From the NCBI GenBank assembly GCA_965116495.1, contig OZ220696.1, forward strand, positions 352,001-416,000: DNA of 64,000 bases, written 5' to 3'. The translations under genes were made by a program, and so were the position numbers. The notes below the pieces were generated by a model. That model was not told the origin of the DNA. It saw nothing but the letters and a program-made list of their open reading frames with translations, and made no database searches. This stretch comes from Gammaproteobacteria bacterium (GTDB lineage: Bacteria > Pseudomonadota > Gammaproteobacteria > Eutrophobiales > Eutrophobiaceae). Below are positions 48,859-54,088 of the stretch, piece by piece. Position 1 is the first letter of the stretch. Every line of letters begins with the position of its first letter.

Positions 48859-48912
48859 ATCCCGCACAGCAAACCAGTTACGATCTGACCCCATTCTACA
48901 TGGGGAAACAGC

Positions 48913-50130
48913 ATGAACGAATTCAGGAAAGGCTGGGGTCCCTTGCTGGCCGCAATGGTAGGCATGATGTGCGGCTTGCTCACAATAACCAATTACTCAC
49001 AGGGCTTCTTCGTCGGTCCCGTTACGGCCGACCTTGGCTGGTCGGTGCCAGAGTTTTTCTTTGCGTTCACGATCTCGGCCTGTCTGGGACTAATTACTGC
49101 CCCGCTCATTGGTTCGCTCGCATTGAAGTACGGCATCAAGCGCATGGGTATTCTCGGACTCGTCGGGCACGCGCTGGCGTATGTATTGATGTCGCTGAAC
49201 AATGGTTCGCTGGCGCTGTGGTACCTGACATTCGCAGCCCTGGCATTTCTCGGAGCGGGTACGCTGCCGGTCATCTGGACGGCCGTCCTCAACGGCTGGT
49301 TTGAGAAGAATCGCGGCAAGGCAATCGGAATTACCATGGCGGGTACCGGGTTAGGCGCATTCCTGTTACCGCCGATCGCTGAGTTCCTGATTTCCAACTA
49401 TGGCTGGCGGACGGCGTACCAGGGTATCGGTATCGGTGCGTTGGTGGTGTCCTTGCCGATAGTCGTTTTGTTGTTCAATGAAAACCCGGAAGCGGGGTCC
49501 GGCAAAGCAAATTCGACAGCGCCGGATACAAGCTGGGGAGTGACGCGCGCGGAAGCGCTGCGCGGCTACCGTTTCTGGGTGCTCGGCAGTGTGTTGTTTA
49601 TCACTGTTTTTGTCATTGTCGGTTTGCTTTCGAATTTCGAGAGAATCATGGTGGCCCAAGGATTGGCACGCGCGGATATCGCAGGTATCGCGGCGACAAT
49701 GGGGTTGACCGTAATCATTGGCCGATTGCTGGTCGGGGTGTTGGTTGACAAATTCTGGGCGCCTGGGGTCGCAGCGGTATTTATTGTGATGCCCATCATC
49801 GCAATGCTGCTGATGAAATATGGCGCCCCGTCAATGCAGACCGGTATAGTCATCGGTATCGCCATAGGACTTGCCGCAGGCGCCGAACTGGACATGCTTG
49901 CCTATCTTACCGGCCGTTACTTCGGACCTGCACATTACCCGGCAGTATTCGGCGGCATTTTTGCTTTTTTTACGGTTGGCGCCGGTATTGCTCCACCACT
50001 GTTCGGCGCGGGCGCGGCGACCTGGAATGGCTACGGTATGGTACTGAACGGCTCGATCGGATTATTGCTCCTGTCGATCATATTGTACCTGAGCTTGGGC
50101 AAATACCCGGATGCCCGGCGTTCCCCGTGA
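48913..50130 (+). CDS. MFS transporter
   Basis: About 12 hydrophobic segments, WFEKNRGKAIG and GAELD...RYFG motifs. Confidence 0.92.
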   Translation: MNEFRKGWGPLLAAMVGMMCGLLTITNYSQGFFVGPVTADLGWSVPEFFFAFTISACLGLITAPLIGSLALKYGIKRMGILGLVGHALAYVLMSLNNGSLALWYLTFAALAFLGAGTLPVIWTAVLNGWFEKNRGKAIGITMAGTGLGAFLLPPIAEFLISNYGWRTAYQGIGIGALVVSLPIVVLLFNENPEAGSGKANSTAPDTSWGVTRAEALRGYRFWVLGSVLFITVFVIVGLLSNFERIMVAQGLARADIAGIAATMGLTVIIGRLLVGVLVDKFWAPGVAAVFIVMPIIAMLLMKYGAPSMQTGIVIGIAIGLAAGAELDMLAYLTGRYFGPAHYPAVFGGIFAFFTVGAGIAPPLFGAGAATWNGYGMVLNGSIGLLLLSIILYLSLGKYPDARRSP

Positions 50131-50406
50131 TGGGGTCAGGTCGCACAATGCACACCGCCCGTAACTGGTTCCACATTAAAAGGTTTTCAAGGATATCCCG
50201 AAGCCGCAAACGCTGGCTCCACCCAGACTGCTTGACCACTACGAATCGGTATTTACGACGCGTCAAAGCGCTATGGCTGCTGCCTATCGGTCAGGACATT
50301 ACACCATGGTTGAAGTGGCGGAGTACTTTGGAGTCAACAGAACTACAGTGGGCCGAACGTTGAAAGAACGAGCCTCAAGTGTGCATTGTGCGACCTGACC
50401 TCATTC
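50129..50406 (+). mobile_element. Non-autonomous internal-deletion derivative of the RAYT element
   Basis: Left ~48 bp matches 51441-51489; the rest matches 52243-52470 (3' end of the transposase and right repeat). Confidence 0.9.
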
Positions 50407-50500
50407 ACGCTTTCTTCTCCCAATCGTCTGTGGTGTTTGTCCTGGCCAGTGTAATGATTTTGCTCATTGGTGTATCGGTTATTTATCTATTTTGAAGGGT

Positions 50501-51370
50501 TCAGATTATAAAGATTCCTGCGTCAGTATTAACCTGGTCTGATGAGATGTCCGCGTCAGTGTCAGTATTAACTTGGTCCGATGAGGTATCCGCGTTGGTA
50601 TCCACTTCTACCACATCGATGTTTGCGAAGAAATCCATTGTACCGTCCCCGTCGATATCGAGATCGAAGGTGTCGGGGTTGGTATTGATGTCGTGGATAT
50701 CGGAAACGAGATCGGGTTCAATCCAGCGGTAATATTCGCTTTCTTCGGTAATGATGAGGCCGTTTTCATCATAAACGGGGGAACGGCCGGTGCCGTCGGC
50801 GTTTTCGCTGATAGGAGCTTCGCGAGTATAGTATCCTTCTGTATCCATCTCTCCATTTTGGTTTGTGTCAATCCACATTTTTATTTGATATTGCTTGTTT
50901 TCCTCCAGGCCTGAAAACCAGGTAACGCTTCCGAAGCGGTCAAAGCCTAATTCTATCAAGGTATCGCTGGGATTATTCAGGACAATCTCTTCATAGTTGA
51001 TATGTATTATTCGCTGCCACTCGCCAGGATTGCCATTTTCATCTAGTTCCCGGATTAGTAGGTAGGTCATATTAACCATCTCTTGTACATATATTGGCCA
51101 GGTTTGTTTAGAGATTGGCCCTTCAGTCGTTGGGTCAAAGTCGGTATGGTGTATGTCTGACTCTGGTTGCCCCTGCCCTTCGTACAACTGATAGAAATCA
51201 CCATCATCATGATCAAAGTCCATGTAGAGAGCGAAGCCGGTTTCATTGTTGATTACATCGAGGTGTATTGAGTATTTGCTGGTCAGTCCGAGGTCGTCCA
51301 GTGTATTGCTGCCGGTCTGTTCAAGGTCTAGTGTAAATTCGGCCATGTCTTGCATTGTGGTTTTCCTCAT
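50501..51370 (-). CDS. Very acidic hypothetical protein with DxDxDG-like Ca-binding loops
   Basis: 289-aa ORF with RBS gagg; DFDHDDGD, DTNQNGEMD and DIDGDGTMD motifs; duplicated C-terminal AD(T/I)SSDQVNTD. Confidence 0.7.
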   Translation of the reverse strand: MRKTTMQDMAEFTLDLEQTGSNTLDDLGLTSKYSIHLDVINNETGFALYMDFDHDDGDFYQLYEGQGQPESDIHHTDFDPTTEGPISKQTWPIYVQEMVNMTYLLIRELDENGNPGEWQRIIHINYEEIVLNNPSDTLIELGFDRFGSVTWFSGLEENKQYQIKMWIDTNQNGEMDTEGYYTREAPISENADGTGRSPVYDENGLIITEESEYYRWIEPDLVSDIHDINTNPDTFDLDIDGDGTMDFFANIDVVEVDTNADTSSDQVNTDTDADISSDQVNTDAGIFII

Positions 51371-51440
51371 TGAGAATTGGAGAAATCTAAATAACCTTAT
51401 CTAATGCCGGGAGAATAAGCAAATTTATAGGCTTAGTGCG

Positions 51441-52472
51441 GATGGGGTCAGGTCGCACAATGCACATCGCCCGTAACAGGTTCCAGATTGGCCTGATCTA
51501 TTTGAAAAGCAGGTAGACTATTAGTAGGATTTCAACTAACCTCTGAATAAGTCAGCATTCCGTAACAGGGATTTTGTATAAATCAGCTTTCAAGGATGAA
51601 CTTATGGCAAGACCTCTCCGAATAGAATTTGCAGGAGCACTCTACCACATCACCTCCCGCGGTAACGCACGTGCTGATATATTTTCAGATGATTTTGACC
51701 GTTATCAATTTCTCAAGCTGCTGGGTGAAGCAGGCAAGCGGTTTGGTTGGTTGTGTCATGCGTACTGCTTAATGTCCAACCACTATCACTTGCTCATCGA
51801 AATCGGCCAGCCCGGATTGTCTAAGGGAATGCGCTTCCTCAACGGCGTTTATACGCAACGCTATAATAAACGACATGCCAGAGTAGGGCACTTGTTCCAG
51901 GGCCGGTTCAAAGGAATCCTGGTAGAGAGTGACGCCTATTTTTTAGAGCTGGTACGGTACATTGTTTTAAACCCCGTTCGAGCCCGGATGGTGAGACAGG
52001 CTCAAGAATGGCCTTGGAGCAGTTACCGGGCCACGGCAGGGCTGGCACGCCCCGAACCTTGTTTAACAATTGACAGGGTATTAGCCGAATTTTCGGAAAG
52101 GTGTGACAGTGCAAGAGCGAAGTATCAGGAGTTTGTTAACACCGATCAAAACCAACCCTCACCTTGGGAGAATCTCAAAAATCAAATTTACCTGGGCTCG
52201 GATTCCTTTGTGCAGGAAATGCTGAATCATATAGAACCGGATAAGGTTTCTAAGGATATCCCGAAGCCGCAAACGCTGGCTCCTCCTAAACCGCTTGACT
52301 ACTACGAATCAGCATTTACGACGCGTCAAAGCGCAATGTCTGCTGCCTATCGGTCAGGGCATTACACTATGGTTAAAGTGGCGGAGCATTTTGGAGTCAG
52401 CAGAACTACAGTGGGCCGAGCGTTGAAAGAATGAGCCTCAAGTGTGCATTGTGCGACCTGACCCCATTCTAC
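51441..52472 (+). mobile_element. RAYT element bounded by ~26-bp inverted repeats
   Basis: gatggggtcaggtcgcacaatgcaca ... tgtgcattgtgcgacctgaccccattc enclosing the transposase gene. Confidence 0.9.
51604..52434 (+). CDS. REP-associated tyrosine (Y1/HUH) transposase with a C-terminal HTH
   Basis: MARPLR..., YHITSRGN, AYCLMSNHYHLL (HUH), GHLFQGRF, YIVLNPVRA (catalytic Tyr), WPWSSY and VAEHFGVSRTTV. Confidence 0.92.
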   Translation: MARPLRIEFAGALYHITSRGNARADIFSDDFDRYQFLKLLGEAGKRFGWLCHAYCLMSNHYHLLIEIGQPGLSKGMRFLNGVYTQRYNKRHARVGHLFQGRFKGILVESDAYFLELVRYIVLNPVRARMVRQAQEWPWSSYRATAGLARPEPCLTIDRVLAEFSERCDSARAKYQEFVNTDQNQPSPWENLKNQIYLGSDSFVQEMLNHIEPDKVSKDIPKPQTLAPPKPLDYYESAFTTRQSAMSAAYRSGHYTMVKVAEHFGVSRTTVGRALKE

Positions 52473-52522
52473 CTGGGCAAATACCCGGATGCCCGGCGTT
52501 CCCCGGGTTGGGCACCGGTACC

Positions 52523-52915
52523 CTATTGTGGCATGTAGTTAATTCTGAAGGGGTTTCCTTCCGGGTCTCTTAATACCGCTTGATACCAACCATAGTAGGT
52601 TTCAAACGGCGGTTTAAGCATTGTTCCACCCAGTTCAACTGCATAATTGCAACGAGCATCAACATCTTCCCGGCTTGATGCACCAAAGGTTATTAAGAGC
52701 GTGTCTGTTTGGGTATCTGGTTTAGTTAGTGACAAAAGCCCGTAGGCATCCAGGCTACTTATGCCGATACAACATGCGCCTGTTTCGAAGCCTCTGAAAT
52801 AATCTGAACGACTTGCCGTTATCTCTTCAAGATTAAATAGTGTTTGATAATACTCAGCAAGGGCAACCATGTTCTTTGCAAACACATTGACATAGAATAA
52901 TGGATATTTATTCAT
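52523..52915 (-). CDS. VOC/glyoxalase family protein
   Basis: ELGGTMLKPPFETYYGWYQAVLRDPEGNPFRI. Confidence 0.85.
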   Translation of the reverse strand: MNKYPLFYVNVFAKNMVALAEYYQTLFNLEEITASRSDYFRGFETGACCIGISSLDAYGLLSLTKPDTQTDTLLITFGASSREDVDARCNYAVELGGTMLKPPFETYYGWYQAVLRDPEGNPFRINYMPQ

Positions 52916-52932
52916 TTTATTTCTTAATAGAG

Positions 52933-53916
52933 TCAAGCTGATTTTCCGTACGTTTTCTCATACATGTAAGCAACATGTTCCCCGGCAGTCGTCTCCGGGA
53001 AATCCAGCTCTCCGGATTCAGGCATGCAGGTAGGGACACATTTGACCTTGTAAAAATAATCAGGATCAAAGAAAGTGGGGCAGGAATAGCGGCTTTTGCC
53101 ACTCTGGTTATTAACGACACGGTGCATATTGGAGCGATATACACCATTGGTGAACACACGCATCATTTCGCCCAGATTGACGACAAACGTGCCTTCTATT
53201 GGAGGGGTTCTGATCCAGTCACCTGCGGAGTTTTGCACTTCCAATCCGCCAATATCGTCCTGCAAAAGCATGGTTAACATACCCCAGTCCGTGTGTGCCC
53301 CTGCCCCAAGTTGATTGGCAACAATTTCGGATTCCTGGGACGGATAATGCAGCAGACGGCCAACCATCACAGGTTCGGATAAGCCCTCGTCGAAATAAGC
53401 CTCGGTCAGATCCAGTGACAAGGCGAGTATCTTTGAAAGCGTTCTGCCCAGGTCCCGCATCAAATCAACATATTCATTAAATGAATCTTTAAAACCCTCT
53501 GGTTGTTCCGGCCATTGATTGGAACCCGTGTTGGGCACTCCTTGTTTCACATAAGGGTGGTTTTCATCCAGGTCATTACCGATAAGAAAGCCTTCTTTTA
53601 AATCGGGTGGCGAACCTTCGTCTAACGTCTGTGCCTTGATAGGTTCGTAGCCGCGAGTACAGGATGAGTTGTTGATATGAACTCTGTTCTTATCCGCTGC
53701 AGGCAAAGCGAAGAATAGTCTTGCCAGCTCAAGATGTTGCTCCATGCGCTCAACAGGAATGCCGTGGTTACTGATATAAAAGAATCCTGTTTCCCTGGAG
53801 GCTTTATGCACCTCCCATGCCACGGCTTTCTTCGCCTCTATATCACCGGAAAAATAAGGGGTAAGGTCAATAACCGGTATCCTGTCAGCGGCCTTTGCGG
53901 GGGTGTAAGTAATCAT
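52933..53916 (-). CDS. 2-oxoglutarate/Fe(II) oxygenase (IPNS-like)
   Basis: IPVIDL, GFFYISNHGI, HTD...H facial triad and RYS motif. Confidence 0.92.
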   Translation of the reverse strand: MITYTPAKAADRIPVIDLTPYFSGDIEAKKAVAWEVHKASRETGFFYISNHGIPVERMEQHLELARLFFALPAADKNRVHINNSSCTRGYEPIKAQTLDEGSPPDLKEGFLIGNDLDENHPYVKQGVPNTGSNQWPEQPEGFKDSFNEYVDLMRDLGRTLSKILALSLDLTEAYFDEGLSEPVMVGRLLHYPSQESEIVANQLGAGAHTDWGMLTMLLQDDIGGLEVQNSAGDWIRTPPIEGTFVVNLGEMMRVFTNGVYRSNMHRVVNNQSGKSRYSCPTFFDPDYFYKVKCVPTCMPESGELDFPETTAGEHVAYMYEKTYGKSA

Positions 53917-54088
53917 AGAATGGGGTCAGGTCGCACAATGCACGTTGTAATCATAGAATGGGGTCAGGTCGCACAATACACGTTGTAGGTGAAGTGACGT
54001 TGTATTTTGGAATCAGCAGAACTGCAGCGGGCCGAACGTTGAAAGAATGAGCCTCAAGTGTGCATTGTGCGACCTGACCCCATTCTAC
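53917..54088 (+). mobile_element. Second RAYT deletion derivative with a duplicated left end
   Basis: 38-bp tandem (53909-53946, 53947-53984) containing the left repeat, then the last ~50 bp of the transposase gene and the right repeat. Confidence 0.85.

Follow-up and report, generated by a model that had tools for sequence, protein, structure and literature searches.

The window analysed here, a 64,000-nt stretch of contig OZ220696.1 (positions 352,001 to 416,000) from a gammaproteobacterium of the family Eutrophobiaceae, contains a perfect 32-bp direct repeat that brackets two copies of a TIRtron, one deleted and one intact, and a gene for an acidic protein. From the comparison of related alleles, we propose that this repeat is the overlap between the resident 3′ end of a major facilitator superfamily (MFS) transporter gene and a piece of the same locus imported from a related lineage, which would have been joined to the right end of a long-resident TIRtron. 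We give this reading a probability of roughly 0.55, and on it the repeat is likely not a target-site duplication. Close relatives carrying empty and differently filled alleles allow the two junctions of the long repeat to be dated separately, and as the two turn out to have different ages and ancestries, an exact flanking repeat is not necessarily a target duplication.

Age and ancestry of the two junctions

The focal genome (G000) is a single 4.34-Mb contig, and an MFS orthologue of at least 90% identity was found in ten relatives. The site is empty, with a single copy of the repeat, in seven relatives, an allele that the preliminary description of this DNA, made from the letters alone, had predicted. 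In G022, G015, G008 and G019 the single copy leads into a complete glyoxalase gene; in G014 and G007 about 100-120 bp of the glyoxalase-side flank are retained after it, and in G005 it continues into a different gene. G002 is rearranged, and in G016 and G010 a left end follows the MFS gene. The repeat was not found twice in any of the three relatives with a 96-97% identical transposase, all of which lies at or near the focal locus.

The same description had assumed a recent insertion of the whole cargo-bearing unit, and this is not what the relatives indicate. Indeed, G000 shares its left junction and its internal deletion with G016 (73 of 82 bases identical), where the cargo is different, and only the right flank of the G000 unit is young. 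In G016 the transposase right end abuts the stop codon of the dioxygenase gene, and the glyoxalase gene is missing.

The two sides of the element do not have the same history. Over 830 bp each, G000 differs from G022 at 52 positions to the left of the element and at 9 from the right copy onward (Fisher p 1e-8), and because of this step we infer that the right flank is a recent import from a related lineage. The corresponding counts for G015 are 60 and 13, while the control genome G008 displays no step (88 versus 73). With G008 as outgroup, the sites derived in G022 and G015 only amount to 15 in the MFS gene and none in 52472-53300, and the sites private to G000 to 35 on the MFS side and 4 in 52472-53300, with a terminal branch of 0.042 versus 0.005. 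G000 is thus an outlier to G022 and G015 left of the element and falls inside their diversity from the right copy onward, and among 165 intervals none but the first one past the junction, on the right, is within 1.5% of G022. Since divergence from G022 increases again past ~53300 and the end pair at 53922 is not of the G022 type (at this position G022 has only a left end and G015 no end), the imported tract would measure 0.8-1.4 kb. The locus adds evidence that the two sides derive from different lineages. More generally, G000 and G022 are ~78-85% identical over much of the sampled backbone and 92-98% in several blocks including the focal region, which points to extensive between-species exchange.

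Structure of the locus and of the repeat

The features of the locus are the following (coordinates in the window).

48882..48892, minus strand: degenerate right-type end, a remnant lying ahead of the MFS start codon; G016, G022 and G015 have it too
48913..50130, plus strand: MFS transporter gene; its TGA stop comes from the outer flank of the element, and empty alleles stop one codon later at TAG
50096..50127, plus strand: left repeat copy, formed by the resident 3′ end of the MFS gene; its length is 33-34 bp if one mismatch (50095) is admitted
50132..50402, plus strand: internally deleted TIRtron, with left core 50132-50154, a leader of ~26 nt, the 3′ part of the transposase gene and right core 50380-50402
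50501..51370, minus strand: acidic open reading frame (ORF) between the two elements, 289 aa, small unnamed family, guanine plus cytosine content 0.46
51444..51466, plus strand: left end core of the intact TIRtron, starting with GGGGTCAG
51604..52434, plus strand: TIRYT transposase, 276 aa, HUH (H60, H62), Tyr119 in YIVLNPVRA, weak C-terminal helix-turn-helix (HTH)
52443..52472, minus strand: right end core (52443-52465) and 6-7 nt of outer flank, with the junction directly after the flank
52472..53300, no strand: tract ~1% from G022 and G015, putative import; right limit between ~53300 and 53916
52474..52505, plus strand: right repeat copy, where the imported tract putatively begins; just past it, the former MFS stop TAG is mutated to TGG (52510)
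52523..52936, minus strand: glyoxalase-like gene, its stop separated by 11 bp from the former MFS stop; G016 lacks it next to the transposase
52933..53916, minus strand: 2-oxoglutarate-Fe(II) dioxygenase gene, putative site of the homologous crossover
53922..54081, no strand: small end pair with two left ends (38-bp stutter) and one right end, a deletion derivative of the element

The preliminary description had reported a perfect 32-bp repeat around a deleted element, an acidic ORF and an intact element, and both the repeat and this anatomy stand. The match between 50096-50127 and 52474-52505 is exact and admits no exact extension, and the 32-mer has only these two matches in the genome, with up to 4 mismatches and both strands considered. 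Just outside it the copies differ at the first base (T at 50095, C at 52473) and agree at the second, leading to an overlap of 33-34 bp with one mismatch. G022, G005, G015, G016 and G014 carry C at the position matching 50095, and the single change within the overlap belongs to the left copy. The end pair at 53922-54081, the end remnant at 48882-48892 and the 112 end copies genome-wide had been missed.

The outer flank of the element supplies the MFS stop TGA (50128-50130), and likewise the dioxygenase stop TAG at the right end of G016 (locus L016). These flank-supplied stop codons are consistent with a selection filtering end-adjacent deletions.

The element is a TIRtron

The element had been taken for an undescribed one; it is a known one, a TIRtron, in which a Y1/HUH transposase gene (TIRYT) lies between inverted ends containing GGGGTCAG. 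The intact copy spans 51444-52465, has inverted repeats of 25-26 bp at these two limits and holds the ORF at 51604, which matches the Y1_Tnp domain (E 1.6e-11) and is the sole intact copy of the transposase gene in the genome. The 227-bp 3′ part in the deleted TIRtron is 91% identical to it. H60, H62 and Y119 are invariant among 10 homologues of the transposase, and the nearest solved structure is that of TnpA-REP (4ER8, E 0.001). In the C-terminal part of the family members, HTH_23 (8 of 10) and HTH_28 (6 of 10) were found at E values up to 0.05; both are below cut-offs in the focal protein. The NCBIfam model NF047646 for REP-associated tyrosine transposases (RAYT; REP, repetitive extragenic palindrome) gives 72 bits, below its cut-off of 80, and no GTAG-tagged REP hairpins flank the gene, the repeats beside it being the inverted ends.

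Genome-wide we counted 112 end cores (57 left and 55 right), which form 46 close pairs, mostly 50-120 bp long, and the end motif is present in 17 of the 23 genomes of the genus. TIRtrons have been described with a GGGGWSAS consensus at their ends (Di Nocera et al. 2013, PMC3733652). They probably correspond to the TnpA-Y1 subclass 2.1 of Quentin et al. 2018 (PMC6006769), found in 14.9% of strains and endowed with a C-terminal HTH of type Bac_DnaA_C, HTH_23 or HTH_28 (PMC6006769).

The family does not make a target duplication of fixed length

A mechanism generating duplications of ~30 bp had been suggested from the focal repeat, and a survey of the family gives it no support. Among 77 homologous loci, an end pair was recognised by script in 47 and in none of the other 30; not one of the 47 has a flanking repeat longer than 10 bp, and this longest outer-flank match is similar to that of the cross-locus control. 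A lack of duplications at other insertions of the family is the outcome that the preliminary description itself had named as refuting its inference. When left-right end combinations within 60 kb were compared in G000, the focal pair shared 32 bp and the next one 10 bp, among the matches listed.

Filled and empty alleles lead to the same picture. Of 18 sites filled in G000 and compared with G022, 3 were excluded (a residual end in G022, another repeat family in G022 and a single end in G000); at 13 of the 15 usable sites 11-81 bp are replaced, and the other two overlap, by 2 bp and, imperfectly, by ~13 bp. Where G000 is empty and G019, G016 or G014 is filled, there are overlaps of 2-3 bp and losses from 7 bp to several kb, and at one site G016 has an imperfect duplication of 14-15 bp that is missing from G014. 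Many of the compared sites are old (78-88% flank identity), and later deletions could have erased early duplications there; in the six comparisons whose flanks are ~90-98% identical, three sites overlap (by 2, 2 and ~13 bp) and three have lost DNA (18, 22 and 45 bp). With no case among the 47 loci, 10 bp as the next longest match in G000 and such variable footprints, we rejected a fixed target duplication of ~32 bp. A hairpin at the target was also rejected, as folding was no better than that of shuffles (z -0.04 to -0.44).

Imperfect repeats of 47-294 bp in which only one of the copies adjoins an end were found at 5 of the 77 loci. At three of these, L057, L065 and L070, the relatives are only 75-83% identical, too distant for the ancestry step to be looked for. 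Other end-bounded duplications at the focal locus itself vary: 50 bp in G016, 67 bp near an end pair in L052 and ~1.2 kb in L053.

Two other sites deserve mention. In L247 (G014), compared with G000:C1:2133283-2133291, the end pair substitutes exactly the 7-nt loop of a target hairpin. At the intergenic site G000:C1:507787, the G022 locus L171 holds a pair from a different GGGGTCAG end family; sites are thus reused by different TIRYT families.

The right junction lies in the register of the family

In G000 the right junction is separated from the end core by 6-7 nt of outer flank, a position at which other ends of the family also change neighbours. Indeed, what follows the right-end flank ATTCTA differs among G000, G016 (two cases), G019 and L052. 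Tandem stutters occur at 33 of 258 ends; 24 of these have their leftmost start 7-9 nt outside the core, with 10 cases at 2000 random positions for comparison. Since the right junction falls in this cut-and-rejoin register, the transposase was probably involved in its formation.

The outer bases have a further property: throughout G000, the 6-8 bases that border a pair on one side recur in inverted form on its other side, with a sequence specific to the locus. At least 6 inverted-identical bases were found in 26 of the 46 small pairs, varying between loci, and 86% of 105 ends have a purine (A or G) at position -6. These bases could be a copied guide or a cut-site signature.

The end pairs also appear to flip in place. 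When orthologous pairs of G000 and a relative were compared, 11 comparisons could be scored, and in 9 of them (8 of 10 distinct sites) the spacer inside the pair points the opposite way in the two genomes, while the flanks run in the same direction; 4 further cases were too short or unclear. Inverted-spacer pairs of G000 are for example those at C1:1842021, 2804449, 3083860, 4011364 and 1451329, and the loci compared are L134, L138, L139, L143, L155, L230, L243, L245 and L248. Furthermore, runs of ends in the same orientation, up to eight in 13.5 kb with kilobase spacing, exist at L163 and L153 (G016), at L053 and in G010 (C1, near 738000 and 692000); tandem copies of an end plus a gene occur as well, and these arrangements have a cassette-like look.

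Origin of the repeat

How would an import generate the repeat? An ancestor of G000 would have lost the glyoxalase gene through a deletion beside the right end, as in G016. Single-stranded DNA from a relative with an empty allele would then have paired in the dioxygenase gene, the HUH transposase would have cleaved the resident right end on the outer side, at 6-7 nt from the core, and this end would have been joined to the incoming strand 33-34 nt before the old left-junction point, inside the end of the MFS gene. On the other side, homologous recombination in the downstream dioxygenase gene would have closed the event and restored the glyoxalase gene. Because the glyoxalase and MFS stops are only 11 bp apart, a joint bringing the whole glyoxalase gene nearly has to fall in the MFS end, and it leaves a direct repeat of arbitrary length. 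The Escherichia coli TnpA-REP cuts single strands, also far from its site, and carries out strand transfer (PMC3333891), and a joint with one-sided homology on one side and an illegitimate junction on the other is a described route for foreign DNA (PMC2884548). By analogy, these activities make each half of the import model plausible.

Several points weigh against this scenario. The main weakness is that a plain homologous import would end at the edge of the element too, so that the divergence step alone is insufficient for an import-made junction; the donor-like tract does start at the junction, and the import may have made the joint. The cutting register and strand of TIRYT are likewise deduced from footprints. 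The right junction of G000 was not found in other assemblies, nor in a metagenome scan of 50 stretches, in which G016-type junctions are present. G019 also displays a step, smaller (105 left versus 58 right, p 1e-4), and the region is mosaic throughout, at 1-16% from G022. In the 5′ half of the dioxygenase gene the divergence from G016 (5.0%) does not fall below that from G022 (3.2%). Finally, the left copy of G000 matches the G022 haplotype and differs from that of G016 at 4 of 32 bases although the junction is common; an extra conversion or recombination step is therefore needed, in the import and the true-duplication models alike.

A true long target duplication seems unlikely to us. It supposes an old two-ended insertion with joints 33-34 nt apart, a right flank later refreshed by import up to the element edge, and the loss of the duplications in relatives through end-adjacent deletions. 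Both copies do abut an end in the expected register, such deletions are common and could erase copies (13 of the 15 comparisons with G022), and the 14-15 bp duplication seen in G016 and lacking in G014 goes in the same direction. However, none of the 47 loci has such a duplication, the comparisons with well-conserved flanks give the small overlaps and losses reported above, the three relatives with a near-identical transposase at the locus have no second copy, and an unselected copy beside an active end must have lasted since the split from G016. It is less probable still that the same import took place with a left joint made independently of the transposase, through microhomology, that is by homology-facilitated illegitimate recombination. 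The donor ATTGTAC, six bases upstream of the joint, matches the end flank ATTCTAC at 6 of 7 bases, and a further 6-nt slip between CTGAGC and CTGGGC would yield the observed junction; the process is described in naturally competent bacteria (PMC2884548), and the scar of G014 fits a microhomology deletion inside an end. Nevertheless two steps are required, and the 6-7 nt register, which matches the junctions and stutters of the family, would not be favoured by a random joint. If the transposase was not needed, the case becomes an ordinary import beside a known repeat family.

The two remaining explanations have little to recommend them. A circle containing the elements and 33-34 nt of captured MFS end could have recombined into an empty allele by Campbell-type integration, in analogy to the ISCR1 complex integrons, and we hold this to be very improbable. 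It yields repeats of variable length, and flank capture has been proposed for TnpA-REP and is cited for IS91/ISCR (PMC3333891). Yet both flanks should then come from the recipient, while the left one is at 6-7% and the right one at 1% from the empty-allele lineage; this ancestry switch counts against the circle unless a later exchange replaced the left flank, and 34 bp is a short substrate for RecA. An assembly artefact, a chimeric join of two co-occurring strains at the right end, receives the least credence. The ancestry switches at the junction, which is known from this assembly alone; but the genome is one contig, the stretch common to the two sides at the join is no longer than 7 bp, which is insufficient for an overlap error, four changes private to G000, one of them in the now unused stop codon, are found in the right flank, and the join lies in the register of the family.

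Beyond this locus, we tentatively suggest, while holding it doubtful, that TIRYT may act as a one-ended recombinase, which would cut 6-7 nt outside the inverted ends and join them to incoming single-stranded DNA anchored elsewhere by homologous recombination. The dispersed ends would then be docking points for gene gain, and long, variable 'target duplications' that preserve gene ends would be overlaps of resident and donor alleles. The import model predicts that cleavage takes place 6-7 nt outside the end core and that the joints require a homologous anchor. If true, the one-ended activity would explain how some insertions with long target duplication arise, and it would assign a function to a large, uncharacterised HUH subfamily.

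The cargo genes

The acidic protein has 4 homologues at 42-53% identity and no match in Pfam, NCBIfam or the Atlas. No TIRtron ends were found within 1.5 kb at the 6 loci of its homologues (4 genomes of the genus), and the acidic gene as a dedicated cargo family was rejected since these loci are without ends. Nothing at the locus shows a joint movement of the two elements with the acidic gene. On the import reading, the latter is one of several cargoes having sat between ends at this hot spot. The 3′ end of its ORF includes a 39-bp tandem repeat (85%) at 50522-50599.

The cargo of G016 (L016), between the MFS gene and the transposase, comprises a PIN-domain toxin-antitoxin-like pair, a relocated P450 gene, an ATPase-like ORF and a KefC-like transporter, these names being based on reading of the translations; a 50-bp P450 fragment is left at a right end. 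We had considered that G014 shares the right junction of G016, and dropped this candidate because its scar fits a separate microhomology deletion.

Comparison with known systems

The closest system is the TIRtron itself. With the published TIRtrons (PMC3733652) the focal element has in common a RAYT-like Y1 gene, long inverted ends beginning with GGGGWSAS and paired ends genome-wide, and it may share a C-terminal HTH. In their available text, the TIRtron and TIRYT descriptions (PMC3733652; PMC6006769) deal with no target duplication, cargo, cutting register or gene import, and the terms 'target site', 'duplication' and 'TSD' are absent from the main text of the 2013 paper (PMC3733652). Our literature search, which reached few subscription papers, encountered TIRYT in two works only and returned no report of TIRYT biochemistry, mechanism or long duplications.

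REPtrons, that is TnpA-REP with REPs and bacterial interspersed mosaic elements (PMC3333891), and REPINs (PMC3116915) share the HUH single-strand cutting and strand transfer. The likeness extends to a single resident gene serving many paired repeats, to local amplification and to a proposed capture of flanks (PMC3333891, PMC3116915). Unlike the REPs, the focal ends are not GTAG-tagged hairpins, their junctions cluster 6-9 nt outside the core, and the RAYT model stays below its cut-off. The REPIN paper covers paired repeats, and in its accessible text 'duplication' occurs once and 'inversion' is not matched (PMC3116915). The IS200/IS605 elements (IS608, ISDra2) have the Y1 HUH catalytic domain in common with the focal element; they have, according to the part of PMC3333891 that treats them, neither inverted ends nor flanking repeats, whereas the focal element has inverted ends.

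Homology-facilitated illegitimate recombination (PMC2884548) resembles our case in importing DNA through one homologous anchor and one non-homologous joint. In the focal locus, however, the non-homologous joint coincides with a transposon end and was probably made by an enzyme. Finally, insertion with long target duplication (Furuta et al. 2010, PMC2853133; Nobusato 2000 cited there) has in common with the focal repeat a length of more than 30 bp, uniqueness in the genome, the overlap with a gene end and an empty allele in relatives. In the portion of that work available, it concerns restriction-modification genes with no mobile element and is ascribed to double-strand breaks (PMC2853133). In the locus described here, by contrast, both copies abut transposon ends, the flanks differ in ancestry, and the insert contains a Y1 transposase and an unnamed acidic ORF.

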